From: Rhodospirillales bacterium
GTDB taxonomy: Bacteria; Pseudomonadota; Alphaproteobacteria; Rhodospirillales; Casp-alpha2
NCBI GenBank assembly: GCA_040218445.1
Contig: JAVJRK010000017.1
Coordinates: 272,724-304,723 of the forward strand
Length of the DNA: 32,000 nt
Reading direction: 5' to 3'
Position numbers and translations under genes: made by a program. The first letter of the stretch is position 1, and each line of letters opens with the position of its first letter. This document shows, piece by piece, positions 18,034 to 31,846 of this stretch. A model generated the notes under the pieces. That model was not told where the DNA came from. It ran no database searches and worked only from the letters and a program-made list of their open reading frames with translations.

Positions 18034-18816
18034 TCAACTGCACTTGCGGTAGACGAGATCGACCTTATGCCATTGGTTGTTGTATTTGACGGCGTATGAT
18101 CGAAGCTCCGTCGCGCTGACGATCTTGTCCTGATAGATCAGGCCGTCGGCCTCCAGAACCAGCACGTCGTTTTCGCGCCGCACGTCATAGACGGCGGAAC
18201 TGCCGTCGTCCCTGATTACCCGGACTTTCTGTGCGTTGACCTGATTGTAGGTCACGCCGTTGCCGCCTTCCGTGCGCGAGCAATCGATTGCCCATCGCCC
18301 CAGAACCCAGGGGACCGGAAACTGTCCCGGCGGGGCGGGTGGCGGCATTTGGCCCGCCGCCGCCTGTTGGACCATCGGGGGTTTCGGCTGATCGACGGCG
18401 AAAGTGCCCTGGACCTGCGCCCCCTGGGTCGGTTGCAGGGTCGCAAGGCGACGCCGTGCCAAATGGGTCAGGGCGCTATCGGGATAGGTTTCGATGAATG
18501 TCTGGAAGACTTTCGGGTCGTCCGACCCGCGAATGCGTTCCCATTTCTCCACATCCTCGCGGCGCTCGCGCGTCGGATCGCGGTTCAGGGATTTTTCTTC
18601 CTCGCCGGAAAACGGGAGTTTGACCGAATCCCATAATTCCTTGGATTTGTCGGCGACGGTGGAAAAGGCGTTCGTCGCGGTCTCGCAGCCGCCCAACAGG
18701 GCCAGTACGGCAAGCGCCGGAAGGGCGATCATCACGCGGGTGCCGGCTTTGCGGTGTCTGTTATTTGCAGATGCGGTCATGATACGGCCTTGGCGGTTGG
18801 TTCCGGCGTTGTTCAT
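18034..18816 (-). CDS. Lipoprotein of unknown function
   Basis: Start placed at ATG 18816 (GGAGGAG RBS 9 nt upstream). Lipobox LALLGGC. The track ORF start at 19014 would read through the tRNA fragment and the terminator hairpin, so it was rejected. Confidence 0.6.
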   Translation of the reverse strand: MNNAGTNRQGRIMTASANNRHRKAGTRVMIALPALAVLALLGGCETATNAFSTVADKSKELWDSVKLPFSGEEEKSLNRDPTRERREDVEKWERIRGSDDPKVFQTFIETYPDSALTHLARRRLATLQPTQGAQVQGTFAVDQPKPPMVQQAAAGQMPPPAPPGQFPVPWVLGRWAIDCSRTEGGNGVTYNQVNAQKVRVIRDDGSSAVYDVRRENDVLVLEADGLIYQDKIVSATELRSYAVKYNNQWHKVDLVYRKCS

Positions 18817-18922
18817 GGAGCGGTGCTCCTCCCCAGAGCTACATAAAAGTAGCCAATTAGAAATAAAAGCGAAAGGCCAACCCGCGCGCGTGGTGTTTGC
18901 TGGGGCTGCCTGCGCAAAAGAA

Positions 18923-18956
18923 AACGGCCCCGGGTTTGCAAACCACAGGGGCCGTT
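18923..18956 (-). terminator. Hairpin next to the distal tRNA-Pro fragment (presumed ancestral tRNA terminator)
   Basis: AACGGCCCC ... GGGGCCGTT 9-bp stem. On the minus strand it lies 9 nt after the tRNA 3'-end copy and is followed by TTCTTTTG. Confidence 0.5.
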
Positions 18957-18965
18957 CTCGATTTT

Positions 18966-19010
18966 TGGTCGGAGTGAGAGGATTTGAACCTCCGACCCCC
19001 GCCTCCCGAA
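18966..19010 (-). repeat. Direct repeat A: 45-nt copy of the tRNA-Pro 3' half (distal att site of the island array)
   Basis: tggtcggagtgagaggatTtgaacctccgacccccgcctcccgaa matches 31770..31814 with a single mismatch (T for C in the T-loop). It covers the CCA end through the anticodon loop. Confidence 0.92.
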
Positions 19011-19217
19011 ACATGCCGATGGAAAATAACCTTTTGATAGAAAGTAATTAAACCTTACAAATTAAGCGATATCAGGGTGGTATTCTGCTTATGTTCATGG
19101 GGAAATGGTTCAATTGAACCGCCAAGCACCGTTTTCTCGCGTCGCGCTCAGGGGGAACGACAGACCGGAATGGGAGCTATAAAGACAAGAAGTGATCATC
19201 GAAACCAGCCGTTGAGG

Positions 19218-21065
19218 TTAGGAGGCGAAATCCGCGCCTTGTTCCATCGCTGTAATTACCTGTAGCGCTTCGGGCGCAATTTCCTCTAATTGCATTTCTC
19301 TCGCAATTGCCAAGGCAGAGAAAGACACACCGAACTCTTTTTTTGACCATCCAGACAAGGTTGAAACGATGTCCTTGCCCGGACAGATGCTCATGACGCC
19401 AATTGAAGAGGCTTCTGCGCCTTTCACTATTTTGCGTGCTTTCTTGTTCGCATCAGCCGACCCTTGTCGGTCTCTAGCGCCTATCTCATTTGAAATTTGA
19501 TCAAACACATCGGTCTGCATTGCTTCGCAGATTTCCGAAATTTTTTTCTCAACAGCTGCGATATTGGGAAAAGTAGATTTGGTTCGCTGTTCGATGACTC
19601 GTGAGATTGCAGGTGCTGAAAGTACGTAATTCTCGATTTCTTTTCGGTTCCAAATATGTAGGTTCAATCCATTGCCACGTGCTTCTTTTTTGATTTTTTC
19701 GTTTTCTGCCTCCGGGCGGTAATCGGAGTCTAAGATGCAGTACGCTTTAATTGATTGATCGCCAGCGTTCTTTAGTCCAATCGCTGCACCAACCGCATGT
19801 TTCCAATTTCCAAACCCGTTGATTGATATATGTGGGATGGCGTTGAAGCTAGTTGGGCTATCCGGAAAAATCTTTTCATGAAGGGCCGTAAGAAAATCAA
19901 AATCGTCACCTTCTATAAAGACGCATTTCCGCGCTGACCAAAGGCGGGTGAGCTGCAGATTGTGAGCTCCGCCAATATTATCAATCACGCTTTGGACGGC
20001 TGGAATGTTCTCTGCAAATTTTGAGTCTGAACTATCTTTATCGACCACGAGAACGTCGTCCGGATTCACCTCTGCCAAAATCTCTGTTGAGTGGGTCGCG
20101 ACCAGAACTTGGGCAAAATAACCTTCCACAAGATGAAAGAGTCGGCGCTGGAGATCTGGGTGGAGATAGGCATCAGGCTCATCGAGCACCACGATCGATT
20201 GCCTTGCGCATCTCGCCAAAAACCAACAGGTCTGTAGCCATGCCTGAAGACCACTTCCTACCCATCCGACCTCAGCGACGAACGCGCCATCTCTAACCAA
20301 AAGATTCAATTGCGGCGGTGTGTGAGTTGTTCGGTCAATTGAGTCTATTCGAAGGTGCGGCCAGGATGACTCTGCGAGCGCGACAAAAGAATCGTAGAAA
20401 GTCGGGATAAATCCGTCCTCTTCTTCGTTGTCTTCATTTATCTGTATTCGGCTTTGATCTATGTTTCCGCCTAAATAATAAATTTGGTTTCTAAAATGCA
20501 GAGAGGATAAGCGCGTATTAATATTTGACCTGACGTAATCGGAGTTCCTTATCTCTTCCGATAGCCTCAGCCTCCCAATGGGAGGCAGAACATTGATTGT
20601 GTCTTGCAAAGCGTTTGAGGCTTGGGATGCTGTTAGAATCCGACTATTTCCTTTTCTCAATACGGCAAAAATATCTTCTGTTTCTGAATTGAGATAAATT
20701 TTTATTATTACTTTATTTGAGAATTTTGCAGTAATAATTGCTGGTGGTTCTCCGTACCTGTAGCAAAGGTTCCGGAATTCGAACTCTAATCCTCTAAGAG
20801 ATGGGGATATCCCATTGCGTGCAGATGGAGTTTTCAGCCAATCGGGCGGTGAAACGAAACGTGTCCTCGGCGCACGCAAGGCAACAATGGACACCAGCGT
20901 TAGTGCTTCGATGATTGTCGATTTTCCAGCGTTGTTACGTCCTACAATTACAGATGTTTGTCTCAGCGGGATTTTGTGCTTCACGAAACCCCGATAATTA
21001 TCAAGTTCCAGTTCAACAATCATCGGTAACTCGCTTCGTCTCGAAAAATCAAAATTGTCCGACAC
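19218..21065 (-). CDS. OLD-family / PARIS-like ABC-type ATPase fused to a Toprim (DUF4435-like) nuclease domain
   Basis: 615-aa ORF. Walker A GRNNAGKST, signature-like GSGLQAWLQ, Walker B IVVLDEPDAYLHP, H-loop VATHS. The C-terminal domain has VFIEGDDFDFL and ILDSDY...WNRKEIENYVL, a Toprim-type acidic motif arrangement. The region is much AT-richer than its flanks (sampled lines about 33-45 percent GC). Confidence 0.8.
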   Translation of the reverse strand: MSDNFDFSRRSELPMIVELELDNYRGFVKHKIPLRQTSVIVGRNNAGKSTIIEALTLVSIVALRAPRTRFVSPPDWLKTPSARNGISPSLRGLEFEFRNLCYRYGEPPAIITAKFSNKVIIKIYLNSETEDIFAVLRKGNSRILTASQASNALQDTINVLPPIGRLRLSEEIRNSDYVRSNINTRLSSLHFRNQIYYLGGNIDQSRIQINEDNEEEDGFIPTFYDSFVALAESSWPHLRIDSIDRTTHTPPQLNLLVRDGAFVAEVGWVGSGLQAWLQTCWFLARCARQSIVVLDEPDAYLHPDLQRRLFHLVEGYFAQVLVATHSTEILAEVNPDDVLVVDKDSSDSKFAENIPAVQSVIDNIGGAHNLQLTRLWSARKCVFIEGDDFDFLTALHEKIFPDSPTSFNAIPHISINGFGNWKHAVGAAIGLKNAGDQSIKAYCILDSDYRPEAENEKIKKEARGNGLNLHIWNRKEIENYVLSAPAISRVIEQRTKSTFPNIAAVEKKISEICEAMQTDVFDQISNEIGARDRQGSADANKKARKIVKGAEASSIGVMSICPGKDIVSTLSGWSKKEFGVSFSALAIAREMQLEEIAPEALQVITAMEQGADFAS

Positions 21066-21208
21066 AATTGAGTGGTCAAATCAAGCGAATGGCGGAATAT
21101 CCATGATTGCGCCTGACAATACGCTGCACTTATTACGCTATCACAAAGAATGGTCCCGCGTATACGCGACGTTTTCGCAATACGAACGCCTCGATAGTTC
21201 AATTCTTC

Positions 21209-21709
21209 ACGAGTGAATTTGCCAATCGAACAGACGTGGACCTGGACGACGGCGTGTGGCAGGCGAGGGCCGGCGACACGAAGTCGGGCGAGGAGAAGCT
21301 GGTGCCGCTGTCGAGACAGGCGGTGTCCCTGCTGCGGGGGCTGTCGGGGGAGGGCGACTACGTGTTCGGCGGTGAGACGCCATTTGTCACCCATAAGGTG
21401 AAGCATAATAAGCTCTACAAGGCAGCGGGCCGCGTGAAGGACGACTCCAGCCACCCGGACGGCGGTTGGACGCCGCACGACTTCCGGCGCACCCAGCGGA
21501 CGCGGCTCGCCCGTGTGTCCGGCGTGAAGAGCCACGTCGCCGACATGCTGGCCGGCCGCCGTGGCAACGAGCAACAGGGCGTGTCGGGCATCTACAATCA
21601 GCACGACTACCTGGAGGAGATGCGGCACGCCGCCCAGGCCTGGGCCGACTGGCTGGAGGTGGTCGTCAACGACGAAGAGACGGTGGTTCCGATGGAGGCG
21701 GCGCAGTGA
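21209..21709 (+). pseudogene. Tyrosine integrase, 5'-truncated (C-terminal catalytic half only; P4-like family)
   Basis: Integrase-like sequence begins about ...DVDLDDGVWQ..TKSGEEKLVPLSRQAV and includes HDFRRT (HxxR) and the terminal GIYNQHDYLEEMRHAAQAWADWL (catalytic Tyr region). The arm-binding and core-binding domains are absent. An abrupt GC shift at about 21200-21230 marks the junction with the nuclease cassette. The left coordinate is approximate. Confidence 0.8.
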
Positions 21710-22080
21710 CGAAGAAGACGGAAAAGCACACGCGGGTCCGGGCCCGCGTCGTCAAGCTGGACGACGACCTGCGCCAGCGGGGGATTGAGACGAACCTCTC
21801 GCGGGTGGCCGGGATGATGGACGACAACCCCAACGACGAGGTCGTCGCGGCGCTGGCGTCAACCACGACCGACACGTTGGAGGACCTGCACAGGCGCTAC
21901 GAGGATAAGCTGATCGGCATAGCGCGGGTCCAGGAGTTGGCGGGCATCAAGAAGTCGGAGGTGGACCGCCGAGTTCGCGCCGGAACCTTCCCCGCGCCGA
22001 AGGTCGCGGGGGACGGAAAGGACCGCAAGTGGTCCCACATAGAAGTAATGGCCTGGGTCACCGAACAGGCGCGGCGGTGA
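21706..22080 (+). CDS. AlpA-family (HTH_17) phage-type transcriptional regulator / excisionase-like protein
   Basis: GTG at 21706 overlaps the integrase stop (GTGA). The C-terminus IGIARVQELAGIKKSEVDRRVRAGTFPAPKVAGDGKDRKWSHIEVMAWV matches the AlpA pattern. Confidence 0.7.
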   Translation: MTKKTEKHTRVRARVVKLDDDLRQRGIETNLSRVAGMMDDNPNDEVVAALASTTTDTLEDLHRRYEDKLIGIARVQELAGIKKSEVDRRVRAGTFPAPKVAGDGKDRKWSHIEVMAWVTEQARR

Positions 22081-22297
22081 CAATTTGATCAGGTACGCTT
22101 AGACCTGAACCACTCCCAGTGCCATCTGACGTATTCATTGTCGAGATCGTGTTTGAGGGCAATCGTCTTGCCGTCAAGAGGGTCGCCAGGAACCTTCGAC
22201 TTGATCTTAAAACTACCTGCGCCTCGCTGCAGGCGAAGCATCCTTCTCGAACGCCTACTCTGACCACAGGACGGGCGACATTACGATTTGTTCCGAG

Positions 22298-22762
22298 GTG
22301 TTTGTGAAGCTATCAGCCGCCGGTAAGAAGGGTGCGTTGTCCGCGATAATGTATCACGAGCTGGGTCACACCCTCCTGAACCTCTGGGGGTTGCCGGGGT
22401 TTGACAACGAGGAGACGGTGGACGAGTTCGCCGTCGTGATGCTTTACCTGGACGGGAGGCAGGAGTACGCGCTCGAGTTCATGGAGTACTTCGAGAAAAA
22501 TAATCCGTGGATAGAGGCTAGGATGATCATCGAGCGCGGGGGGCGGCACCCAATCTCCTCCCAGCGCATCCGAAACGTGAGGCGGATACTCAGCAATCCG
22601 GGGCCAGTGATTGAGCGATGGAACCGGCTGTTGTACCCGCATATGACTGTCGCTGGTCTGGAGAACGTGCTGAAGACGGCGCCGCGATATGCCGACCGGG
22701 CATTGGCCGAAAAGTTGATCGCCGAGAAGTCTGCGCGTCGAGAACCACCGCCTCAAAATTAG
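22298..22762 (+). CDS. HExxH metallopeptidase-like protein (DUF4344-like), probably N-terminally truncated
   Basis: 154-aa ORF with a GTG start. It has YHELGH followed by a DNEETVDEFAV acidic motif, as I recall for DUF4344 putative metallopeptidases. It is shorter than I expect for that family. Confidence 0.55.
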   Translation: MFVKLSAAGKKGALSAIMYHELGHTLLNLWGLPGFDNEETVDEFAVVMLYLDGRQEYALEFMEYFEKNNPWIEARMIIERGGRHPISSQRIRNVRRILSNPGPVIERWNRLLYPHMTVAGLENVLKTAPRYADRALAEKLIAEKSARREPPPQN

Positions 22763-22817
22763 GTCAAGGACCTGTACTAGGACCTGGGCGGTTTGTTCTC
22801 CTGGGCCCAGAAAGTAA

Positions 22818-22853
22818 AAGCCCCTTAACTCGTTGAGTTAAGGGGCTTCTTTT
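22818..22853. terminator. Strong hairpin adjacent to direct repeat B
   Basis: AAGCCCCTTAACTC-gtt-GAGTTAAGGGGCTT 14-bp perfect stem. CTTTT follows on the plus strand, and on the minus strand it sits right after the tRNA-fragment 3' end. Confidence 0.7.
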
Positions 22854-22898
22854 GGTCGGAGTGAGAGGATTCGAACCTCCGACCCCCGCCTCCCGAAG
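22853..22898 (-). repeat. Direct repeat B: 46-nt exact copy of the tRNA-Pro 3' half (junction between the two islands)
   Basis: tggtcggagtgagaggattcgaacctccgacccccgcctcccgaag is identical to 31770..31815. The sequences diverge after that point. Confidence 0.95.
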
Positions 22899-22920
22899 GC
22901 GTGAACAAGCCATTTTCCCT

Positions 22921-23047
22921 TGCTTACACGAACTTTCTTTCTCTTACTAACACATTGCAAAATCGTCATAAATGCCTTACTTTTGAGGCGGTGGTTAAGC
23001 GCGAATTTACCCTGATTTACTCTTATTTGCTTACATCGTGCTTACAT
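22921..23047 (+). promoter_or_regulatory. Putative integrase arm-type binding sites, left arm (TGCTTACAY repeats)
   Basis: TGCTTACAC at 22921-22929; TGCTTACAT at 23028-23036 and 23039-23047 (11-bp phasing). Weaker TTAC-containing copies lie between. The same 9-mer pair recurs at the other end of the element (31703-31722). Confidence 0.6.
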
Positions 23048-23106
23048 GGGAATGGCCCCTTACCCCTGCTTTACGCGAACAGGGGTCAGAATTTGGAGGC
23101 GATGCA

Positions 23107-24402
23107 ATGCCGAAAATCTCAAAAAGCACCGTGGATTCCACGCATCCGAAAGGCGCTCAATTCTTCGTTTGGGACGACGTGTTGAAGGGATTCGGCCTTC
23201 GCGTCACACCGGCGGGCGTGAAAAGTTTCGTCTTCCAATACAGAACGCCGGAAGGGCGGACACGCCGGGCCACGATTGCCAAGGTCGGCACCGTCACACC
23301 GGCAAAAGCCCGCGAACTTGCCGAGGATATGGCCGCAACCGTCAAGCATGGCGGCGACCCGCTAGGCGACAAATCCGCCGCGCGTAATTCGATCACCGTT
23401 GCAGAACTGTTGGACGCTTATTTGAAGTCCGCCGCGTTCGCCGCGAAAGCGGAAAGCACGCGGGCGACCGACAAGGGCCGGATTGAACGGCACCTTCGCC
23501 CGCTTCTGGGGAAGATGTATGCACATAAACTCGGAAGCGACGACGTGCAGCGCGCCTTCAATCAGATCGTCGCCGGCAAGACGGCGGGCCACATCAAAAC
23601 CGGCAAACGCGGCCTTGCCCGAGTGACGGGGGGGCATGGGGCGGCCCGTGCTTCGGTGAGGCTTTTGCGGGCGATTTATAATTGGGCGGCAGACGCGATG
23701 GCGCTCAAGGTTGATAACCCCTGCGCCAAGATAAAGATGGGGCGCGACGGCGAGCGCGATGTGATTTTGGATTCGCCCGAACAGTACGAGCGCCTGTTCC
23801 GTACCCTTGAAAAAATGGAAGCCGAGAAACGCATCCGCGCCCCCGTAGCGGATGCAATCCGCCTGATCGCCATGACAGGCGCGCGCCGTTCCGAAGTTAT
23901 CGGCCTACGTTGGAAACACGTTGACCTGAAAGGCGGGCGGATCGTTCTTCCCGCGACTTCACACAAGGCGGGCCACAAAACCGGCAAGGCCCGAATCATT
24001 CCGTTGGCGACGGCGGCGCAAGCGATCATTTCCCGCCAGCCGGAAGGCAAGCCGGACGATTTGGTTTTCCGCCCGGCGCGTGGCGACAAGCCGATGCACA
24101 TTAATAAGCCGTGGCGTGACGTTCGCGCCGAAGCCGACTTGCCGGAAGGGATCGGCCTTCACGGCCTCCGGCATTCCGTCGCGTCGCTGATGGCGATGGC
24201 CGGTGCTGGGGCAAGTGAGATTCAGGCAGTCACGGGCCATCGTGATCTTAGGATGGTGCAACGCTACGTTCACTTCGCCGACAACGCCCGCGCCGCGCTG
24301 GCCGAACGTGCCGCCGCGCCGGCTTTGGCAGGCTTGGCTGCTGCGGCTGGCGAACAGGGCGGCGAAGTGGTGACGCTGGCGGATAAGAAGGGGCGGGGAT
24401 AA
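23107..24402 (+). CDS. int: Tyrosine-type site-specific integrase with N-terminal arm-binding (DUF4102-like) domain
   Basis: Start at MPKISKS (ATG 23107, GGAGG RBS). N-terminus FVWDDVLKGFGLRVTPAGVKSFVFQYR. Catalytic residues in TGARRSEVIGLRW, HGLRHSVAS, GHRDLRMVQRYVH. Confidence 0.93.
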   Translation: MPKISKSTVDSTHPKGAQFFVWDDVLKGFGLRVTPAGVKSFVFQYRTPEGRTRRATIAKVGTVTPAKARELAEDMAATVKHGGDPLGDKSAARNSITVAELLDAYLKSAAFAAKAESTRATDKGRIERHLRPLLGKMYAHKLGSDDVQRAFNQIVAGKTAGHIKTGKRGLARVTGGHGAARASVRLLRAIYNWAADAMALKVDNPCAKIKMGRDGERDVILDSPEQYERLFRTLEKMEAEKRIRAPVADAIRLIAMTGARRSEVIGLRWKHVDLKGGRIVLPATSHKAGHKTGKARIIPLATAAQAIISRQPEGKPDDLVFRPARGDKPMHINKPWRDVRAEADLPEGIGLHGLRHSVASLMAMAGAGASEIQAVTGHRDLRMVQRYVHFADNARAALAERAAAPALAGLAAAAGEQGGEVVTLADKKGRG

Positions 24403-24875
24403 TGGCGCGGGACATTATCAATAACTTGAACTGGCTATCATATCTTCCGCGCTTAGTCCGCATCGAAAAGACGGCGCGATGGATATTGGAACAGCCCGAC
24501 GACTCGCGCCATGAAATTGCCAGAGAAATTCTCAAAACCGCCGCGCAAGTTCGTCGCGATCACAAACACGGCTGGGACACTTCGAATTTTGTAGATACCC
24601 TCAATCAACTTTGCGGCCGGGCGGATGCAGAGATTTTCGCGCCGTATGTTAAGGAATCCGCCAAGCGCCGCGAGCGGTTCCGCGATCAAGTTGCGGAACC
24701 TCGCAACAAGCAAGCACGCGCCGAAGGAAACGCACGACGCGCTGAATGGCAAAGCGCCGCCGATGAAATTTGGTCACGCCATCCTGAGTGGACTGCCTCC
24801 GACGTGGCACGCCGGATTGCCAAGGATCGTGGCGGCGACTGGAACACAATCCGCCGCAGGATCGCCCGCAAGTAA
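24402..24875 (+). CDS. Hypothetical protein, translationally coupled to int (TAATG overlap)
   Basis: 157-aa ORF with coding-like codon usage. The C-terminal basic segment (WTASDVARRIAKDRGGDWNTIRRRIARK) could be a small HTH. I recognise no family. Confidence 0.55.
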   Translation: MARDIINNLNWLSYLPRLVRIEKTARWILEQPDDSRHEIAREILKTAAQVRRDHKHGWDTSNFVDTLNQLCGRADAEIFAPYVKESAKRRERFRDQVAEPRNKQARAEGNARRAEWQSAADEIWSRHPEWTASDVARRIAKDRGGDWNTIRRRIARK

Positions 24876-24956
24876 ATAGTTGTCACGGCCTTCTAAGCCG
24901 TGACAGCCGATACCGCTTACCTTTCGAACCTAGACGCAACTCGAAAGGTAATAGCG

Positions 24957-25181
24957 ATGACACCGGAATATTTCACGCGAGCCGAAGCCGCCGAATACCT
25001 TACATCGCGCGGTCTGCCCGTATCCAAATGCACCCTTCAAAAATGGGCGACGGTCGGCGGCGGTCCCGTCTATCGGATTTTCGGTATCCGCGCGCTCTAC
25101 ACGCCCGCCGACTTGGACGATTGGGCCGAAGAAAAGCTGAGCGCCCCGCGCCGGTCGACTTCCGAAACGGTCGCCGCGTGA
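24957..25181 (+). CDS. Excisionase/MerR-type helix-turn-helix DNA-binding protein (HTH_17-like)
   Basis: Start at ATG 24957 inside track ORF 24900..25181. FTRAEAAEYLTSRGLPVSKCTLQKWATVGGGPVYRIFGIRALYTPADLDDWA matches the excisionase-family pattern. Confidence 0.75.
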   Translation: MTPEYFTRAEAAEYLTSRGLPVSKCTLQKWATVGGGPVYRIFGIRALYTPADLDDWAEEKLSAPRRSTSETVAA

Positions 25182-25309
25182 TGACGCCCGCGACTTTGAA
25201 CGAGGCCCTTCGCCAAGCGCAGCTTCGCGTCCGCGCCGCCCGCGCCGAACTGCGTGCTGCCGAAGTCGAACTGCGCCGCGTGCGGCGCGAACACAGAGAG
25301 GTGGCATGA
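25181..25309 (+). CDS. Small Arg/Ala-rich helical protein (42 aa), hypothetical
   Basis: ATG at 25181 overlaps the upstream stop (TGATG), and its own stop overlaps the next ATG (ATGA). MTPATLNEALRQAQLRVRAARAELRAAEVELRRVRREHREVA. Supported mainly by the coupling pattern. Confidence 0.4.
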   Translation: MTPATLNEALRQAQLRVRAARAELRAAEVELRRVRREHREVA

Positions 25310-25617
25310 TGCGCCCCGAACTCCAAACCATCGCCGCGAAACGCGCTGACGGCATTGCTACGGCGGCGGGATCGGCACGCCGCATGCTGGCGCTGATCGA
25401 ACACCTGGTCGCGGCCTCACAATGCCCGTTGGAGCGGCGGGCGTTGCGACTCCAAGCCGTGGCCATCCGGCGGAACTTGATCGCGATCATGAAAGCGCCG
25501 TCACCGTTCGCGCGACCCGTGACCATCCCGGACGACGTGACCATGACGCCGCCCGTGGACGGGTCGCGCGTTCCGCGCCGTGTCGCCGTGCAACCGATTA
25601 GCCGAGGAGCACCTTGA
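25306..25617 (+). CDS. Hypothetical protein (103 aa)
   Basis: ATGA overlap with the upstream ORF and high third-position GC. No recognisable motif. Confidence 0.55.
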   Translation: MMRPELQTIAAKRADGIATAAGSARRMLALIEHLVAASQCPLERRALRLQAVAIRRNLIAIMKAPSPFARPVTIPDDVTMTPPVDGSRVPRRVAVQPISRGAP

Positions 25618-26099
25618 CGATGGATATGCACCAAACAGAAACCGCCGCGCCCGGGCAGGGACACGGCGGCGGGGTAACTGGAAAATCGAGCGTTTCCAAT
25701 CATACCCCAAAAACCCCGAATTTTCAACTTCTCGACGCCGCCTTGTCCGAGATTGACGCGGCGCGCGGGCGCGATGCGACGAAGGCCGACGCGGCTTACC
25801 ACAAGCGAGTGGCGGACGACCTTTCGAACTGGCTGGCCGACGATCTTCTGCAAGCCCGCCGTCGCATCCCTAACGAACCGAAAGGCCGGCGCGTGCCGCC
25901 GACGATGGGCGACTTGCGAGGCATGGTGGACGTGCAGCGCCGCCTAGCTGCGGCGCGAACGGAGGCGGAATTATGGGACGCGGCCACATGGGCGGCGCTC
26001 AATACCAACGATCCGAAATGGGAACGGCTTGTGATGGAACTGTCCCGCGCCGAAAGCCATGTCGCGGAACTTGAACGAGAGGCGCAACCGTGGAAATGA
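25614..26099 (+). CDS. Hypothetical protein (about 160 aa)
   Basis: The track start is TTG 25614; ATG 25620, 3 nt after the upstream stop, is an alternative. Coding-like codon usage. No recognisable motif. Confidence 0.55.
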   Translation: MTMDMHQTETAAPGQGHGGGVTGKSSVSNHTPKTPNFQLLDAALSEIDAARGRDATKADAAYHKRVADDLSNWLADDLLQARRRIPNEPKGRRVPPTMGDLRGMVDVQRRLAAARTEAELWDAATWAALNTNDPKWERLVMELSRAESHVAELEREAQPWK

Positions 26100-27616
26100 A
26101 TAATCAATCAACGCTACGCGCCGCCGGGTATCGAGGCCCGACCGTTGCGCCGACAATCCCCGTAGCCATCGGGCCGGGGCGGACTGCCGAGGCGGTCGAG
26201 TCCGTACTAGCGACATTGCGCGAGCGGCCCGACGTGTTCGACCTGGGCGGCGCTATCGTGCATATCCACAATGGCGCAACGGTGCCGCTCGACCGTCACG
26301 CGCTGGCGCATTTTCTCGGAAGCGCTGTGCGTTTCGTGCGCTTCAAACAGGATGGCACCGCGAGCGCCGACGACCCGCCGCAACGCCTCGTTGACCAGCT
26401 ACTATCGCTGGGCGCGGTGCGCGGGCTCAAGCCGTTGGACGCGGTGACGACCATTCCGACCCTTCGACCCGACGGGAGCGTTTTGGACTCGCCCGGATAC
26501 GATGCGGCATCCCGGTTGCTCTACGTGGGCGACGGCGAGTCGAGCGTGCCGGAACGTCCATCGGCGGACGAAGTGCGGTCGGCTTATGAGACGGCACTAT
26601 TTCCGTTCCGCGAATTTCCCTTCGTGGGGCCGGTCGATTGGGCCGTGATGCTTTCCGCGATCCTGACCGCCGTTATCCGACCCGCACTCCCGACGGCGCC
26701 GGCCTTCGCCTTCGACGCGCCGTCGGTTGGAAGCGGCAAGACGTTGCAGGCGTCATGTGTCGCGGCGATAGCGAGCGGCGAACGTCCCGAACCGTGGCCC
26801 CCGGTTGCGGCGCGCGACGATGAGGAAATAAGAAAGCGCCTGTTCGCCGCGCTTCGCACCGGGGCGCGTGCAATCGTATGGGACAACCTCGCCGGCACCC
26901 TCGACTCCCCGAGCCTCGCCGCGTTCCTGACCGGGCCGACGTTCCGCGACCGCATCCTCGGAAAATCGGAAAGCCTGGCCCTTCCAAACCGAGCGGTATT
27001 CCTGCTGACCGGCAACAACGTGAGCCTCGCGGGTGACATGCCGCGGCGTGTCCTTACGTGTCGCATCGATCCAAAATGCGAGCGCCCGTTCGCCCGGCAA
27101 TTCGACCTCGACCCCTTGGCGCACGTCATGGCGCATCGCGTCGATATAGCCACAGCGGCGCTGGCCATTGTGCGCGGTTGGCTTACCAGCGGTGCGGCAC
27201 CGCGCCCCGGCCGCGTGGCCAGCTTTGAAGCATGGGACTCGTTCGTGCGCCAGCCGGTCGCGTGGATCATGGGCGTTGACCCGCTCGACGCGATCAACAC
27301 GGGCGCGGAAGCGGATCCAGAACGGGAAGCCCTGGGCGATCTTTTGGAAGCGTTGCGGATGTGTTTCGGGGATGCGGGGTTTACCGCCGCCGACGTGGCC
27401 GACGCTATCCGCAAAGGCGCGGGACCGTTCGGTGACGAAGCGCAACGGGCCGTCGCCGCCGCCGTGGCCGACGTGGCCGGGCGTAACGATCCGAGCGCCA
27501 AGAGCATCGGGCGCATCCTTAATTTCCGACGTGGGCGGATCGTCAACGGCATGAAGCTGGAATGCGAGCCGACGCGCGACGGAAAGCGTTGGTTTGCGAC
27601 TTTGGAGAGGGTTTAG
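26096..27616 (+). CDS. SF3-like P-loop NTPase / putative replicative helicase of the element
   Basis: ATG 26096 overlaps the upstream stop (ATGA); the track start is GTG 26090. Walker A FDAPSVGSGKT, Walker B-like RAIVWDNLAG, and a motif-C-like VFLLTGNNVSL with conserved Asn. No obvious primase motifs. Confidence 0.65.
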   Translation: MNNQSTLRAAGYRGPTVAPTIPVAIGPGRTAEAVESVLATLRERPDVFDLGGAIVHIHNGATVPLDRHALAHFLGSAVRFVRFKQDGTASADDPPQRLVDQLLSLGAVRGLKPLDAVTTIPTLRPDGSVLDSPGYDAASRLLYVGDGESSVPERPSADEVRSAYETALFPFREFPFVGPVDWAVMLSAILTAVIRPALPTAPAFAFDAPSVGSGKTLQASCVAAIASGERPEPWPPVAARDDEEIRKRLFAALRTGARAIVWDNLAGTLDSPSLAAFLTGPTFRDRILGKSESLALPNRAVFLLTGNNVSLAGDMPRRVLTCRIDPKCERPFARQFDLDPLAHVMAHRVDIATAALAIVRGWLTSGAAPRPGRVASFEAWDSFVRQPVAWIMGVDPLDAINTGAEADPEREALGDLLEALRMCFGDAGFTAADVADAIRKGAGPFGDEAQRAVAAAVADVAGRNDPSAKSIGRILNFRRGRIVNGMKLECEPTRDGKRWFATLERV

Positions 27617-27623
27617 AAAAATG

Positions 27624-27760
27624 CCAAAGTCGCACTTAATATCTAATTATTTCAATGGTTTGTGGGTTTGCTGGTTTAAATACACTACCCCATACGCGAG
27701 GCGTTCCAGAATCAAATACAAATGGGCCGAAACCAAAGTCGCAAAGTCGCAAAGTCGCAC
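27624..27760. repeat. Iteron / AT-rich ori-like region immediately downstream of the helicase gene
   Basis: CAAAGTCGCAC at 27625-27635 and 27750-27760. CAAAGTCG tandem x3 at 27734-27757. A second tandem 8-bp series, GGTTTGTG/GGTTTGCT/GGTTTAAA, at 27657-27680. An AT-rich spacer lies between them. Confidence 0.55.
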
Positions 27761-27909
27761 GCGCCCCCGTGAAAATATAGCCCGCAGGGCCAGGGGGGAG
27801 GGTTTGGAAGTCCCAAAGGGGCTCCCCGTAGGACCGGCTGCGGTACTCAAATTTTATCGCCCGCAGTGTTCGCAAAAACGCGATTCCATAATTTTGGAGA
27901 ATTATAAAA

Positions 27910-28395
27910 ATGACGAAACGTAAACCGCCCGATCTTCGATTACTCGAAGGCAACCCCGGCAAACGCCCGATAAAGAAACGTGGCGTGACGCCGACCGGCG
28001 ATGCAGTTGCGCCCGTGTGGTTATCCGAAGGTGCGGCGGCGGTGTGGTCGCGCGTGGTCGACGCCATGCCGGGCGTGTTCAAGGCGACGGACGCGGAAAT
28101 CCTGACGGCCTATTGCTGCGCCGCCGACCAACACCAGCGCGCAACGCTGGCCCTTGCAATCGAAGGCCCGATCTTGACCGGCCCGCGCGGACGGCAATCC
28201 AAAAACCCTTGGCTGGCCGTCCAGAAGGACGCTGCCAACGCGATTGAACGCCTGGGCCGTCGCCTCGGCCTCGACCCGACCAGCCGTGAACACCTTCCGC
28301 AACCCGCACCGCAACCGGCCTCCAGCAAATTCGCCGGGCTGGTCGGCGCGGGCACTTCACCAACAGAGAAAGGAACGAACGATGACGACGACTGA
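27910..28395 (+). CDS. terS: Phage terminase small subunit, P27 family
   Basis: 161-aa ORF. LLEGNPGKRP...P.WLSEGAAAVWSRV...TDAEILTAYCCA...SKNPWLAVQKDAANAIERLGRRLGLDPTSR follows the P27-family TerS pattern. GGAGA RBS. Confidence 0.85.
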   Translation: MTKRKPPDLRLLEGNPGKRPIKKRGVTPTGDAVAPVWLSEGAAAVWSRVVDAMPGVFKATDAEILTAYCCAADQHQRATLALAIEGPILTGPRGRQSKNPWLAVQKDAANAIERLGRRLGLDPTSREHLPQPAPQPASSKFAGLVGAGTSPTEKGTNDDDD

Positions 28396-28615
28396 CGCGA
28401 AGCATCAAGCCAACGCTGCGACCGCAATCGCACTGGGCATGGAGGCCGCAGCCGACCAAGGCGTACCCGACGCCGTGATTATGAATGAAGTTGTGAAGAT
28501 CGCACTCGGGATCATCGGTGCTGCAAACGGTGGCCCGGATGCGGTGCCGGACACGCTGCGACGGCTGGCCGATGAGATCGAGGCGAACCCGAACGAGCTG
28601 AAATCACTTAACTAA
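28382..28615 (+). CDS. Small acidic helical protein (77 aa), hypothetical
   Basis: ATG 28382 with an AAAGGAA RBS; overlaps the terS 3' end by 14 nt. MTTTDAKHQANAATAIALGMEAAADQG... No family recognised. Confidence 0.5.
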   Translation: MTTTDAKHQANAATAIALGMEAAADQGVPDAVIMNEVVKIALGIIGAANGGPDAVPDTLRRLADEIEANPNELKSLN

Positions 28616-28775
28616 TCGGCACTGTGTGACTGTCACATTCTGCGTAGCTGCTTAATATGACAGTACTAGGACGCAGCGCCCTAAGTAAAAAATTGTTGCG
28701 TTATTTACACGGGGCGTTAGTATTTACTAGTTCCCTGGCGCTGCCATGAGGCATCGTCGGGGGGCGCCGCAACGT

Positions 28776-28855
28776 CACGCCGTGCGCTGGCGTTGCCCTA
28801 ATAAAGCGGCACGCCGTGCGCTGCCGGACCCGACTCGATAGCACGCCGTGCGCTG
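28776..28855 (+). repeat. Three phased copies of a 14-bp palindrome-containing repeat upstream of the capsid gene
   Basis: CACGCCGTGCGCTG at 28776-28789, 28810-28823 and 28842-28855 (spacing 34 and 32 bp). Copies 2 and 3 contain the palindrome GCACG-C-CGTGC. A degenerate fourth copy lies near 28896. Confidence 0.85.
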
Positions 28856-28949
28856 CGTCGATGGGCGGATCAATCCCAACACTTTGTACAACGCGCACCC
28901 GTGCGCCCGCTGGGCCGCGTGGTGCAACAGACAGAAAGGGCATTATGTA

Positions 28950-30149
28950 ATGTCTATCATTCAGAAAAAGCGCGGCATTCTGGCCGTGCGCGCCGAAGCC
29001 TCCGATGTGATGGCGGAGATTCAGGAACTCAACGCGGCCCATGCCGATTGGCGTGACCGCGAAAGCGCCAAAGTCAAAAAGCTGGAAGCTAATCTCGTTG
29101 AAATGGAACAGCGCCTCGCAGAACGCGACCTCATGCCGCGTGGCGGCGCTGGGCAATCTTCCAGCATGGCGAGCGCGGTCAGCCTCGCGGCTGATCTCAA
29201 CAAGGACGGCACCTTCCAGCAGTTCGCGGCCGGTAGCATCAAAGAATGCGGCGTGAAGGTCTCGGCAACCAAACTCTTGAACGTCCAGGCCAACGTCATT
29301 CGCTATGACTCCGGCGATCTCGCGGTGCGCGAGAATGTCGGCGTGATCGAACCGGCCCGCCGCCGTCGTTGGCTTCGTGATCGCCTTACGACCGTGACGA
29401 CGACCGGCGGCACGGTCGAGTTTTCGCGCGAGGCCAGCGGCACCACGAACAACGCGGACGTTGTTGGCGCTGGCTCTCCCTTCGTGCACGAGGGCGCCGA
29501 CAAGCCAGAGAGCGTTATCGAGTGGGATTTGCTCGACCTCAAGGTGCCGACGATTGCCACCTATGTTCGCGCGAGCCGTCAAATTCTGTCGGACGTTGGC
29601 GAACTTGGCCGCATCATCGACCGCTATCTCCGGCATTTCCTCGAATTGAAGCTGGAACAGCAGATCATCGCTGGCGCCGGCACCGGGGCTCAGATGAAGG
29701 GGCTTACGCACGCCGACAACCGCGTGGCCTTCACGCCGACCTCGGGGGATACCGGGATCGAGTCGATTTCGCGGGCGCTTGGCACCCTCGCGAACTCTTA
29801 TGAGATCCAGGCGAACCTGGTGATCCTTAACCCGGTCGACTATCGCGCCATGCAGCGCACCCGCGCGGTGACCGACGGTCAGTTCTTGTGGGGCGATCCG
29901 AACGGCGCGAATTCCGAACAGGTCTGGGCGGTGGACATTCACCAAACCCCGGCCATGACGCAGGGATCGTTCGCGATCACCGATACCGAACAGGTCGGGA
30001 CGTTCCGGCTTCGCGAGGACGCCCAAATTATGACGGGCTACACGGGGAACCAGTTTACCCAGAACCTCGTGACCATCCTTGGTGAACTTCGGGCGTTGCT
30101 GACGGTCGAGCGCCCGACGGCGACCATGTACGGCTCGTTGACCCTCTAA
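28950..30149 (+). CDS. Phage major capsid protein, HK97 family, with N-terminal delta (scaffold) domain
   Basis: Start at MSIIQKK (ATG 28950, AAAGGG RBS) inside track ORF 28848..30149. N-terminal coiled coil (EIQELNAAHADWRDRESAKVKKLEANLVEMEQRLAE). C-terminus ...NLVTILGELRALLTVERPTATMYGSL is typical of HK97-fold MCPs. Confidence 0.9.
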   Translation: MSIIQKKRGILAVRAEASDVMAEIQELNAAHADWRDRESAKVKKLEANLVEMEQRLAERDLMPRGGAGQSSSMASAVSLAADLNKDGTFQQFAAGSIKECGVKVSATKLLNVQANVIRYDSGDLAVRENVGVIEPARRRRWLRDRLTTVTTTGGTVEFSREASGTTNNADVVGAGSPFVHEGADKPESVIEWDLLDLKVPTIATYVRASRQILSDVGELGRIIDRYLRHFLELKLEQQIIAGAGTGAQMKGLTHADNRVAFTPTSGDTGIESISRALGTLANSYEIQANLVILNPVDYRAMQRTRAVTDGQFLWGDPNGANSEQVWAVDIHQTPAMTQGSFAITDTEQVGTFRLREDAQIMTGYTGNQFTQNLVTILGELRALLTVERPTATMYGSLTL

Positions 30150-30271
30150 GCCTCCCAGCGAGGCGCGGCGCACGGCCCCGCCTCGCATCCGGCCGCGCCG
30201 CCCGTGTGGGTTTCTCCTATGGCCCAGCGGGCGGCGCGCCGGTCTCTTTCCGACAGGGAGACCGCCTCGCT

Positions 30272-30562
30272 ATGGCCAAACGACATTCAACCGAATACCG
30301 ACGCCAAGTCGTCGCCGCATACGACCAGGCCCGCCGCGACGGTGCGCCCGTTGGCAAGGCCGCGTTGCTGGCCAATGCGGATAGCGTGGACGGCCCGCGG
30401 CAGGTTGCAAAGAGGCGGGCGTGTTTGCGGTGCCGCAGGGATTTTAGATCAACGTGGAGCGGGGAGCGGATTTGCGGCGCGTGTAAGTCGGGCGAGCATT
30501 ACGACGGACTGCCGGCGGGATGGGGCGCTACGGCGACCTTGGGCGTGGCGCACCAGGGTTAG
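30272..30562 (+). CDS. Small zinc-ribbon protein, hypothetical
   Basis: Start at MAKRHSTEYRR (ATG 30272). CxxC...CxxC motif (CLRCRRDFRSTWSGERICGACK). No family recognised. Confidence 0.5.
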   Translation: MAKRHSTEYRRQVVAAYDQARRDGAPVGKAALLANADSVDGPRQVAKRRACLRCRRDFRSTWSGERICGACKSGEHYDGLPAGWGATATLGVAHQG

Positions 30563-30639
30563 GCGACGACCGCACACCTCAACGTTACAAGCTGGAATCT
30601 TGAACCTATACTCCCTTACATCGACTAAGGGAGGCGGGG

Positions 30640-31296
30640 ATGCCTGACGCTGGGGCAACAATTATAGCGGTGACTCTGCTTGTTTTGATCGTGGTGCTGG
30701 CGATGCGCCGCCGGACAGAAAGGCAAGGCGAGGAAGAAAAGAATCAAAATGCCCGCGATTTGCGACCGATATTGCCGGAAAGATTTGTCGTATTCGATTT
30801 TGAAACTACTGGCTTGGATTGTAACAAACATGAAATCCTTGAAATTGGCGCGATCAGCGTTAACCGGGACGGCGTCGATCACAAGACGTTCCAATGCTTG
30901 GTGATCCCGCAGAAACGTATTAGCCGAAAGATCACTGAGATCACGGGAATTGACAAAAAGATGGTGACAGAGAGCGGTCAGCCTCTCGCGGATGCGATTT
31001 CCCAGTTTCGAGACTTTATCGGCGACCTCCCATTGGTCGCTTATAATGCTGAATTCGATATGGGGTTCCTTCACGCCGCAGAAAAGTCACTTGGCCTTCC
31101 AAAGACAAAGAACGAAGTGTCTTGCGCATTAGAACTTGCACGACGGGCGTGGCCAAGCCGCAGGTCTTACAAGCTGTCTGAATTAGCGAAAGATGGCCGG
31201 TTGGACGCATCAAATGCGCACCGTGCTTTGGATGATTGCAAGATGACCATGATTGTATATGCGGCGGCTTCATCAATTACTGGCAGGCGTCGTTAA
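30640..31296 (+). CDS. DEDDh (DnaQ/epsilon-like) 3'-5' exonuclease with N-terminal transmembrane anchor
   Basis: 218-aa ORF. TM helix ATIIAVTLLVLIVVLAM followed by RRRTERQ. Exo I FVVFDFETTGLD, Exo II LVAYNAEFDMGFL, Exo III HRALDDCKM. The region is AT-richer than the rest of the island. Confidence 0.85.
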   Translation: MPDAGATIIAVTLLVLIVVLAMRRRTERQGEEEKNQNARDLRPILPERFVVFDFETTGLDCNKHEILEIGAISVNRDGVDHKTFQCLVIPQKRISRKITEITGIDKKMVTESGQPLADAISQFRDFIGDLPLVAYNAEFDMGFLHAAEKSLGLPKTKNEVSCALELARRAWPSRRSYKLSELAKDGRLDASNAHRALDDCKMTMIVYAAASSITGRRR

Positions 31297-31356
31297 ACAG
31301 GGCCTACCTTAACAGCTTCCCCAACAGCCGCCCCGTGATCCTCTCGGACCATCGGC

Positions 31357-31632
31357 TTAAAGCAGGTTGCCGAATCTGAGACTGACAAACAACGATCCCA
31401 AACTAACGACCAGTGACAAACCGGCGATCCCGATCGCAAGGAGGGTTGTCCTTTTCATATAGCGCCCGGTCAATTCGTTGTTCAGCACTTGAATGACGTT
31501 GGGGTTAGTCCAGTCTCCGTCATCCCTATTGTTCGCAACTAGAAACTCTTTGGTCCGGAAAGATAGTTCGGCCCTAATCGCCTTATCCGAAGCGAGCTCC
31601 AAAATCCGAATGGCATTTGGTTTTTCGCCCAT
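31357..31632 (-). CDS. Small tail-anchored membrane protein (91 aa), hypothetical
   Basis: A soluble N-terminal part of about 60 aa, then a single C-terminal TM helix (TTLLAIGIAGLSLVVSLGSLFVSL). Convergent with the exonuclease gene and has the same AT-rich composition. Confidence 0.5.
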   Translation of the reverse strand: MGEKPNAIRILELASDKAIRAELSFRTKEFLVANNRDDGDWTNPNVIQVLNNELTGRYMKRTTLLAIGIAGLSLVVSLGSLFVSLRFGNLL

Positions 31633-31702
31633 CGATCATCCCCCGTCATTTATAAGGCTGAAAACCCTACGCGCGCCGCACATGGCGAGTCCATGCACGC
31701 CC

Positions 31703-31722
31703 TGCTTACATGGCGCTTACAT
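31703..31722 (+). promoter_or_regulatory. Putative integrase arm-type binding sites, right arm
   Basis: TGCTTACAT at 31703-31711 and CGCTTACAT at 31714-31722. They have the same 11-bp phasing and the same orientation as the pair at 23028-23047. Confidence 0.6.
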
Positions 31723-31731
31723 GAATAAAAT

Positions 31732-31761
31732 AAGGGCCTAGGCGTTTCCGCCTAAGCCCTT
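31732..31761. terminator. Hairpin terminator directly downstream of tRNA-Pro (minus strand), also closing the island on the plus strand
   Basis: AAGGGCCTAGGCG-tttc-CGCCTAAGCCCTT 13-bp stem with one mismatch. On the minus strand it is followed by a TTATTTTATT run, 8 nt after the tRNA CCA end. Confidence 0.65.
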
Positions 31762-31769
31762 GATTTTAT

Positions 31770-31815
31770 TGGTCGGAGTGAGAGGATTCGAACCTCCGAC
31801 CCCCGCCTCCCGAAG
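31770..31815 (-). repeat. Direct repeat C: the 3' half of the intact tRNA-Pro gene (att core of the array)
   Basis: Identical to 22853..22898 and 44/45 identical to 18966..19010. Confidence 0.95.
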
Positions 31816-31846
31816 ACGGTGCTCTACCAGGCTGAGCTACACTCCG
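31770..31846 (-). tRNA. tRNA-Pro (anticodon CGG), 77 nt, CCA encoded
   Basis: The reverse complement folds by hand into a cloverleaf. Acceptor CGGAGTG/CACTCCG; D arm GCTC-AGCCTGGTA-GAGC; anticodon arm CCGTC-TTCGGGA-GGCGG (anticodon CGG); variable loop GGGTC; T arm GGAGG-TTCGAAT-CCTCT; then A-CCA. Confidence 0.95.

Follow-up and report, generated by a model that had tools for sequence, protein, structure and literature searches.

A capsid gene-bearing island at a tRNA-Pro gene of a Rhodospirillales bacterium, a probable helper-dependent satellite of the PICI type

The window analysed here, a stretch of 32,000 nucleotides from a Rhodospirillales bacterium (GenBank assembly GCA_040218445.1, contig JAVJRK010000017.1), harbors an island of 8917 bp that is bounded by exact tRNA-Pro-derived direct repeats and that encodes a major capsid protein (MCP) of the HK97 type as well as a small terminase (TerS) of the P27 family. 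The island is genuine and intact and belongs to a conserved family, and we put the probability at about three in four that it is a helper-dependent satellite of the phage-inducible chromosomal island (PICI) type, residing at the 3' end of tRNA-Pro(CGG) and following a life cycle such as the one we infer below. The repeat pair at its ends (22847-22901 and 31764-31818) spans 55 nt at 95% identity and includes an exact run of 47 nt, and for the 27-mer core of the attachment site (att) 0 chance occurrences are expected. An earlier reading of this DNA (referred to as the original prediction) had described an element of about 9 kb with exact 46-nt att repeats, which is borne out by the exact run at 22852-22898. 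The remainder of the window consists of ordinary chromosomal genes, i. e. those for SMC, DciA, as well as TRAP and TAXI transporter genes. The island TerS is 100% identical to a protein of the NCBI metagenome-assembled genome (MAG) GCA_040219375.1 (Rhodospirillales bacterium) on contig JAVJSR010000008.1, the gene map of which agrees with the window.

The open reading frames (ORFs) of the island were searched against Pfam, PHROGs, NCBIfam and PADLOC (Table 1). These family searches, together with repeat searches, confirmed the parts that had been listed earlier, namely an integrase gene (int), a helix-turn-helix (HTH) regulator, a replicase, iterons, the P27 TerS, repeats and the HK97-type MCP. 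TerS and MCP are indeed the sole virion or packaging genes of this satellite-like island: no unknown ORF gave a family match to a large terminase (TerL), portal, protease, tail or lysis protein in these four libraries, the largest of them comprises 161 aa, and no ORF has the size of a TerL or portal gene. The remaining long ORFs, which had been regarded as antisense artefacts, do not match any family.

Table 1. Features of the island and of related elements. Positions refer to the window unless a locus is named; compared loci are denoted by L and a number.
Feature	Position or size	Strand	Evidence and remarks
attL, partial copy of the tRNA-Pro 3' end	22852-22898		direct repeat with 31769-31815
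Tyrosine integrase, 431 aa	23107-24402	+	Arm-DNA-bind_3 and Phage_integrase; phrog_1 E=2e-64; equal length in NCBI gene call
157-aa ORF, no family assignment	24402-24875	+	start overlaps final base of int stop codon; slot varies among elements
Predicted HTH_17 (AlpA / excisionase-type) DNA-binding protein	24957-25181	+	PF12728 E=1.5e-4; phrog_66 E=7e-6
Three overlapping small ORFs (42, 103, 161 aa)	25181-26099	+	called in MAG record; no family matches
Replicase, 506 aa, probably superfamily 3 (SF3)-type helicase, Walker A GSGKT	26096-27616	+	phrog_29234 E=1e-82; phrog_19930 E=1e-22
Putative replication origin, iterons CAAAGTCGCA x4-5 including one inverted	27593-27760		directly 3' of replicase gene
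Putative cohesive-end (cos) site	27786-27870	+	predicted end junction between 27846 and 27847, GGACCGGCTGCGGTAC to its left and TCAAATTTTATCGCCCGCAG to its right
Small terminase, P27 family, 161 aa	27910-28395	+	PF05119 E=6e-17; TIGR01558 E=6e-18; phrog_83 E=8e-33
Conserved 77-aa ORF, probably helical as judged from the sequence	28382-28615	+	44-77% identical in L003, L008, L095, L097, L101-L104
Palindrome TAGGACGCAGCGCCCTA, then promoter-like TTGCGT-16-TAGTAT	28667-28723 (palindrome 28667-28683)	+	upstream of hairpin array
Three tandem RNA hairpins, 24-nt units around core ACGCCGTGCGCT	28771-28860	+	capsid gene leader; covariation
HK97-type major capsid protein, 399 aa, N-terminal delta-like coiled coil	28950-30149	+	PF05065 E=2.5e-25; TIGR01554 E=3e-20
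CxxC...CxxC zinc-ribbon protein, possible N-terminal HTH (by eye)	30272-30562	+	conserved; no family match
Cargo: DEDDh (RNase_T / DnaQ-like) exonuclease, hydrophobic N-terminus	30640-31296	+	PF00929 E=3e-32; PADLOC DEDDh E=2e-37
Cargo: 91-aa ORF, hydrophobic C-terminus	31357-31632	-	called in MAG record; no family matches
tRNA-Pro(cgg)	31770-31846	-	ARAGORN; Rfam tRNA 62 bits; 3' part is attR
Hairpin array, L016	4872-4953
Hairpin array, L020	3557-3638
Hairpin array, L204 (phage D3)	4333-4387
Island of the window	8917 bp		tRNA-Pro
Island L001 (Porticoccaceae)	8865 bp		tRNA-Pro
Island L003	8508 bp		tRNA-Pro
Island L006	9141 bp		tRNA-Thr
Island L101 (type B)	9169 bp		tRNA-Lys
Island L104 (type B)	9209 bp		tRNA-Met

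Besides its family matches, the MCP is linked to the HK97 fold by direct comparison with HK97 gp5 (phmmer E=4e-29) and by the crosslink triad K169/N356/E363 of HK97, which aligns with K185/N372/E379 of the island protein, all three residues being invariant in the family alignments. Lesions in the capsid gene, which the original prediction had named as evidence against its reading, were not found, and the crosslink triad is intact. An AlphaFold model of moderate confidence (pLDDT 59) displays a long N-terminal helix resembling the delta domain and finds its best structural matches in the HK97 and D3 proheads. Relatives sharing 46-59% identity are scarce: 13 clusters at 39-58% identity came out of an indexed search, HMMER run exhaustively against 1.84 billion representatives yielded just two full-length clusters at the 50%-identity level, and a genome scan with an alignment of 11 MCP sequences returned 6 loci only, with GCA_040219375.1 not among them. 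The nearest phage MCPs are 30-35% identical to the island protein.

The predicted regulator matches phrog_66, annotated as 'excisionase and transcriptional regulator', and its orthologues in L001, L006 and L095 match HTH_17. Among the small ORFs that follow, L003, L008, L095 and L101 conserve those of 103 and 161 aa (orf103 and orf161) at 40-76%. The replicase matches phage primase/helicase PHROGs only, with phrog_19930 described as 'DNA polymerase/primase'. In relatives, the same slot is taken by D5_N/DUF5906, DUF3631 or primase-pol/DUF5906 proteins, and pairwise comparison of three replicase types revealed no similarity. The iterons vary along with the replicase, i. e. TGGTCCAGGTG in L006 and CCGTGTCCT / CCGTGTAC in L003/L008. 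This switch of iteron sequence with replicase type marks the iteron block as a putative origin, and PICI origins occupy the very position just 3' of the replicase gene (PMC6092414).

Immediately upstream of terS, ~90 nt align with the sequence obtained by joining the two ends, right to left, of the linear Burkholderia phage phi1026b record, which ends in GGGACCGCCCGCTTC and starts with GTCAAATTTTCACGCCCGCG, compared with AGGACCGGCTGCGGTAC followed by TCAAATTTTATCGCCCGCAG in the window. In phi1026b, the TerS gene lies at nt 46-531 and an HNH endonuclease gene at the right end. The block, with the core GGACCGGC-N8-TCAAATTTT, is kept in every type A (protease-less) and type B (protease-bearing) satellite examined as well as in the phages L016 and L028, and it tracks TerS across these satellites and phages. 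Moreover, the IMG/VR phage contigs L018 and L023 begin at the point that is equivalent to the predicted junction. Hence, the island probably carries a complete cos site of the HK97/phiE125 type with a junction near the position given in Table 1.

The 12-mer ACGCCGTGCGCT is present in exactly three copies (28777, 28811 and 28843), which lie between the 77-aa ORF and the MCP gene and are the only ones in the window; with one mismatch allowed, 5 copies are found in the window versus 0.49 expected. All type A islands examined have two to four copies of this 12-mer or of its variant AYGCYGKGCGCT in the corresponding position. Each unit can fold into a stem of 7-10 bp with a bulged C, and the motif can be summarized as 2-4 tandem hairpins with the invariant core A-YGC-YKG-GCG-C-U. 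Across 33 distinct units, standard pairs fill 87% of the pair cells as compared with 70.6% in shuffles (a value reached by 0/500 shuffles), and the covariation score amounts to 0.456 as compared with 0.175 for shuffles and 0.09-0.17 for slid controls. The stems contain 22 G.U pairs and a single A.C mismatch, an excess that points to RNA of the sense strand. No match to the array was found in Rfam.

The same array is present in phages. In L016, L017, L020, L023 and L028 it is located inside the 3' end of a ClpP-type protease gene, with the first copy in a different reading frame from the other two. The head module of these IMG/VR phages comprises TerS, TerL, portal, ClpP protease and MCP (by Pfam for L016), and the TerS proteins of L016, L017, L023 and L028 are 42-47% identical to that of the island. 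A scan of IMG/VR for the tandem motif retrieved 98 stretches, mostly from contigs of 30-60 kb, and in ~70/78 newly fetched stretches the motif lies at the 3' end of a homologous ClpP protease gene. In Pseudomonas phage D3, two variant copies are found where its ClpP gene, orf5, ends, and phi1026b, which was likewise searched, does not contain the motif. In the island, the array is non-coding. That it was retained after loss of the protease gene argues that the hairpins matter for capsid-gene expression. The array furthermore ties the type A islands to ClpP-type HK97-like phages, as a source and as probable helpers: the head module looks derived from such phages through loss of terL, portal and protease, and the ClpP-type phages are likely the helpers.

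Other roles for the 12-mers were considered and discarded. Binding sites for TerS (pac) do not fit, as type B islands are devoid of the repeats although their TerS is 76-84% identical; instead, the repeats follow ClpP-type protease genes and type A MCPs. Origin iterons can be dismissed because the 12-mers are identical in islands with three unrelated replicases. A protein-level repeat is at odds with the differing frames in phages and the non-coding location in satellites, and a DNA palindrome with the covarying outer stems and the ratio of G.U to A.C given above.

Upstream of the array, a palindrome of the form TAGGRC-N5-GYCCTA precedes the promoter-like element by ~12 bp; the latter was spotted by eye and was not scored by a consensus scan. 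Counterparts of the palindrome are located at 9716 in L003, at 9724 in L006, and at 5073 and 924 in L008, with one in the equivalent position of each of these loci. The palindrome is a candidate operator for an island DNA-binding protein. In L008, a second palindrome copy lies near the early region.

The cassette is not confined to this window. In every context examined, it starts with int, which is followed by a variable ORF, HTH_17, small ORFs, a replicase that differs in type and a P27-type TerS; one or two small ORFs, MCP, the zinc-ribbon ORF and cargo complete it. It was found at tRNA genes of Rhodospirillales, other Alphaproteobacteria and Porticoccaceae, and on longer contigs it is flanked by housekeeping genes. 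The original prediction had proposed to look for the int-helicase-TerS-MCP cassette at tRNA-Pro in related genomes, and it is indeed present there in L001 and L003, with varying replicase type. The concern that the region might be a fragment of a larger prophage did not materialize, as the compact cassette with tRNA-derived repeats occurs in at least six independent loci. HK97-like prophage modules (TerL, portal, protease, head-tail, tail and lysis) were not detected in the island, where the hairpin piece from the 3' end of the ClpP gene is the sole remnant, and the relatives examined have no prophage module set of TerL, portal, head-tail, tail and lysis genes. The sizes of six elements all fall within 8.5-9.2 kb whatever their content (Table 1), a narrow range that points to a packaging size constraint.

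Particularly instructive are L003-L005 (ENA MICH18 scaffolds), which belong to the same species as the window, with flanks that are 99.8-100% identical at the protein level (compared with window 16592-31846). Their island is a mosaic variant at the same att site: int is 95% identical, the MCP 51%, TerS is of another subtype, and the replicase is, unlike that of the window, of the D5_N/DUF5906 type. The ORF just after int is unrelated; accordingly, the 157-aa ORF of the window, which has no family match, has no homologue in L003 despite the 95%-identical int. Such a replacement at one att site within a species is the pattern shown by active satellites.

A sister lineage, type B, is represented by L101-L105 (JGI and ENA metagenome contigs). 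Its TerS is 76-84% identical to that of the window, and orf161 (63%), the 77-aa ORF (50%) and the zinc-ribbon ORF (60-68%) are shared, with an MCP that is merely 42-43% identical. Directly upstream of this MCP, type B islands encode a Peptidase_S78 prohead protease, whereas no TerL, portal or hairpin array was found in the islands examined. The notion of an element with only TerS and MCP therefore holds for the island of the window, but not as a distinction at the family level, since close relatives possess a prohead protease.

How does this gene set compare with known satellites? SatelliteFinder defines PICIs by a core of int, regulator, pri-rep, capsid morphogenesis and terS, with portal, connectors, tail and holin as forbidden components and a median size of 9.5 kb (PMC10085698). 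The island of ~9 kb has an integrase at one end together with its own att site (the 47-nt exact repeat), a replicase module with an iteron origin, as judged by primase/helicase PHROG matches with no primase domain shown, the HK97-type MCP for capsid morphogenesis and the P27 TerS, and none of its ORFs matches a tail, holin, portal or head-tail connector protein. By its predicted products, it contains each sequence-testable part of the PICI model, save that the match of the regulator is sub-threshold.

The original prediction had contrasted the island with classical PICIs on the grounds that these carry no MCP. This is incorrect, as EcCICFT073, PmCI172 and, in the form of Ccm, SaPIbov5 have capsid homologues. 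In EcCICFT073, a capsid protein is encoded along with a head decoration protein (PMC6092414), and the RefSeq annotation of CFT073 places both beside int, an HTH regulator and a primase. PmCI172 has an MCP homologue and makes small capsids (PMC6092414), and Ccm of SaPIbov5 is a capsid homologue that occupies the pentamers of small capsids (PMC8569155). The idea of an unusual hijacking strategy and an undescribed satellite family was likewise not sustained, because gene set and strategy have already been described for PICIs. The concept of a satellite with only MCP and TerS is thus in the literature, and it is the lineage, not the kind, that is new, a result that is useful though unsurprising to the specialist.

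With the Gram-negative PICIs EcCICFT073 and PmCI172 the island has in common the order of int, regulator (predicted to be AlpA-type in the island), replicase with 3' origin and then a packaging/capsid module, a capsid homologue along with TerS (or a TerS-like protein), the lack of portal, TerL, tail and lysis genes, and the accessory genes at the far end. Yet, the capsid protein of EcCICFT073 shows no homology to the island MCP (BLASTP E=0.87). Membership in the PICIs hence rests on architecture and not on common ancestry, and the island is, as far as its predicted proteins tell, an independent lineage of the PICI kind. We read the EcCICFT073 capsid protein as lambda E-type, since a head decoration gene follows; the island MCP, by contrast, belongs to the HK97 type, has a delta-like domain and keeps the crosslink triad, and the island TerS is of the P27 family and has its own putative cos. 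Further differences from Gram-negative PICIs are the hosts (Rhodospirillales and marine Gammaproteobacteria), the S78 protease of the sister lineage, and the fact that the present elements are known from sequence alone.

On this basis, a life cycle can be proposed. A helper phage would trigger the HTH_17 (AlpA/Xis-like) regulator, leading to excision of the island. Replication would then proceed from the iteron origin just 3' of the island's own replicase gene, and the P27-family TerS would bind beside the island's own cos site immediately upstream of terS. Helper TerL, along with an HNH endonuclease, may cut at cos and pack one cos-to-cos unit of ~8.9 kb. The full-length HK97-type MCP would build or at least dominate a small shell, ~T=3 by volume scaling, to which the helper would contribute the portal for shell assembly, a ClpP-type maturation protease, the tail and lysis functions. 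The capsid gene would be transcribed from its own promoter through the three-hairpin leader, and the same hairpin element is situated at the protease/capsid junction of the presumed helper lineage.

Regarding the shell, HK97 has a capacity of ~40 kb at T=7. Scaling of this capacity with T^1.5 gives ~11 kb at T=3 and 17 kb at T=4, and a unit of 8.5-9.2 kb would fill ~80% of a T=3 shell by the same calculation. We favour a shell that consists mainly of island MCP over a minority role of the kind described for Ccm, because the MCP is complete, the sister lineage has its own protease and the unit length is tight. In addition, the position of the S78 protease directly upstream of the MCP in the sister lineage suggests a self-contained shell and maturation unit.

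Several points weigh against a PICI-type satellite with this life cycle. The capsid clade of the island was not found among the IMG/VR viral contigs, where the best match is 35-38% identical, so that there is so far no sign of these islands reaching virions. Signs of excision, encapsidation or circular forms are likewise lacking: the contigs L002 and L100, which have the size of the element and were considered as circular or excised forms, end 30 nt into each att copy and are explained by assembly breaks at the att repeats, as expected from a k=31 assembly graph. No helper phage is present in the window. The HTH_17 match of the regulator (E=1.5e-4) is under the Pfam cutoff, the replicase has no match in Pfam, NCBIfam or PDB sequences, and a single-sequence structure model of it was unusable (pLDDT 36). 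The cos junction is deduced from homology to the ends of a record and of contigs, the T=3 figure is a rough volume scaling of our own, and both a whole shell and co-assembly with a helper capsid protein are compatible with the sequence.

This last point leads to the strongest competitor, which we consider possible but clearly less likely than the satellite with a shell of its own. The capsid protein could work as Ccm of SaPIbov5 does, i. e. co-assemble with that of the helper, for example in the pentamers, and redirect capsid size or shape without being the main subunit. For capsid homologues encoded by satellites, no role other than that of Ccm has been solved experimentally (PMC8569155). Ccm also has a delta domain and gets cleaved without a satellite protease, and type A islands are likewise devoid of a protease. 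The coupling of the MCP to an S78 protease in the sister lineage speaks against such a role, as do the retention of every HK97 chainmail residue and the identity of only 30-35% to the nearest phage MCPs. The latter two observations, however, are compatible with co-assembly, given that Ccm is 23% identical to the capsid protein of its helper.

An improbable alternative is that the element serves chiefly as an anti-phage interference island, with TerS and the capsid homologue poisoning phage packaging or assembly, and with transfer being rare or never occurring. PICIs do interfere with helpers via packaging and assembly functions, and defence-type cargo is frequent; examples are the DEDDh exonuclease of the present island, PycTM of L097, a PARIS-like ATPase in the neighbouring island and, in L101, what may be a toxin-antitoxin system. 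On the other hand, a probably complete cos site, a putative origin and an integrase as well as the tight unit of 8.5-9.2 kb are kept, and mosaic variants sit at one att site within a species, all of which indicates selection by transfer and not by defence alone; besides, interference and transfer are not mutually exclusive. Least credible is a decayed prophage remnant that became immobile after losing its terL, portal, protease, tail and lysis genes. In its favour, the head module looks phage-derived by deletion, with a piece of the protease gene 3' end surviving as hairpin leader, and a truly decayed island adjoins. Against it, all ORFs are intact and the att repeats exact, distant hosts have islands with the same reduced gene set and size at four different tRNA genes, the replicase modules resemble those of satellites or plasmids and not those of a phage early region, and a remnant would not be replaced, as seen in a conspecific strain, by a mosaic sibling at its own site.

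The satellite reading can also be extended to a bolder version, which we regard as speculative and rather doubtful. The islands might represent a distinct ancient lineage that builds an entire miniature (~T=3) chainmail capsid of the HK97 type from its own MCP alone on a stolen portal, has it matured by helper ClpP, and packs exactly one cos unit of ~9 kb, with the triple-hairpin RNA, an element not described before, perhaps reflecting a general post-transcriptional control of capsid genes to which the satellite connects.

Among other satellites, SaPIbov5 is similar to the island in being cos-packaged, as predicted for the latter, and in encoding a capsid homologue of the HK97 fold, delta domain included, while protease, portal and TerL are lacking. 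The helper required by SaPIbov5 is an HK97-like cos phage working with an HNH endonuclease (PMC6893505). In contrast to the island, SaPIbov5 copies the cos of its helper, lacks its own TerS for that route, resides in Gram-positive hosts, is regulated in the Stl manner and employs Ccm as a minority subunit. Capsid-forming PICIs (cf-PICIs) share the HK97-type capsid gene, TerS and the PICI-like left arm. Their definition requires at least 9 of 11 core parts, which include TerL, portal, protease, head-tail adaptor and connector and HNH, and their median size is 14 kb. The island has 5/11 (int, the predicted regulator, replicase, TerS and MCP) and hence falls outside this definition; the other parts are missing, with a protease present in the sister lineage only.

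Elements such as phiRv1 and phiRv2 have genes for capsid, prohead protease and terminase-like proteins and lack those for portal and tail. By description they resemble the type B sisters, whereas host phylum, integrase and replication modules differ. SatelliteFinder classes these mycobacterial elements as PICI (PMC10085698). PICMIs (phage-inducible chromosomal minimalist islands) and the marine VEIMEs, integrative mobile elements that become encapsidated in virions, are small marine satellites with int, AlpA, replicase and sometimes TerS that encode no capsid protein and whose concatemers are packaged into helper capsids of full size; the capsid gene places the island outside this class. Markers of P4-like satellites (Psu, Sid, Delta, epsilon, alpha primase-helicase), which also have a P2-type cos, were not among the general PHROGs and Pfam matches, with libraries that are not confirmed to cover every marker. 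The cos block of the island is homologous to phi1026b/HK97-type ends.

What is new in detail is the assignment of a putative cos site, the sister lineage with a protease, the lineage of candidate helpers and the RNA hairpin element. The island family extends the range of PICI-type satellites with a capsid homologue to hosts among uncultured Rhodospirillales, further Alphaproteobacteria and the marine Porticoccaceae, for which no studied satellite-helper pair is known. The series of full phages, type B and type A islands displays a phage head module pared down to TerS, cos and MCP. Furthermore, the shared cos block and hairpin array provide sequence handles for tracing helpers in metagenomes, and the array, being unmatched in Rfam, may represent a novel structured RNA of phage late operons.

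Of the small conserved ORFs, the 77-aa ORF is 32% identical in L096 in addition to the loci of Table 1 and has no match among the viral contigs examined. The zinc-ribbon ORF is 60-68% identical in L003 and L101-L104, and 65% identical across its C-terminal part in L006. Its product is characterized by CxxC-X13-CxxC and a conserved C-terminal DGLPxxWGATATxGVA, and the gene is uncalled in the MAG annotation. No homologue was found among the phage contigs examined, and the ORF appears to be specific to satellites.

The cargo 3' of the capsid module differs among islands and seems to be related to defence. In the window it consists of the DEDDh exonuclease, the gene of which sits in a region of lower GC content, and a small membrane protein (30640-31632). 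In L097 (4002-5314) its place is taken by a PycTM (Pycsar-type) effector with a neighbouring gene, and in L101 (13722-14318) by a Gp49 / HI1420-type pair that may be a toxin-antitoxin system.

A more distant element is L098, a Logan contig (SRR14194051) of 9716 bp, in which a serine recombinase and an AAA_25 replicase replace the tyrosine integrase and the SF3 helicase. It encodes TerS, four small ORFs and an MCP that is 30% identical, a layout which indicates that a module of TerS and MCP only recurs on unrelated backbones.

Finally, a third att-like copy at 18967-18993 marks a decayed older island in tandem at the tRNA-Pro site (18967-22852), with a GC content of ~46%. It contains an integrase fragment near 21466-22080, a DUF4344 fragment (22298-22762) and, on the minus strand, the gene for a 615-aa OLD-family ATPase (19218-21065), the best match of which is the PARIS AriAB model (E=5e-30). 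This ATPase is 99.8% identical in the conspecific contigs L003-L005.

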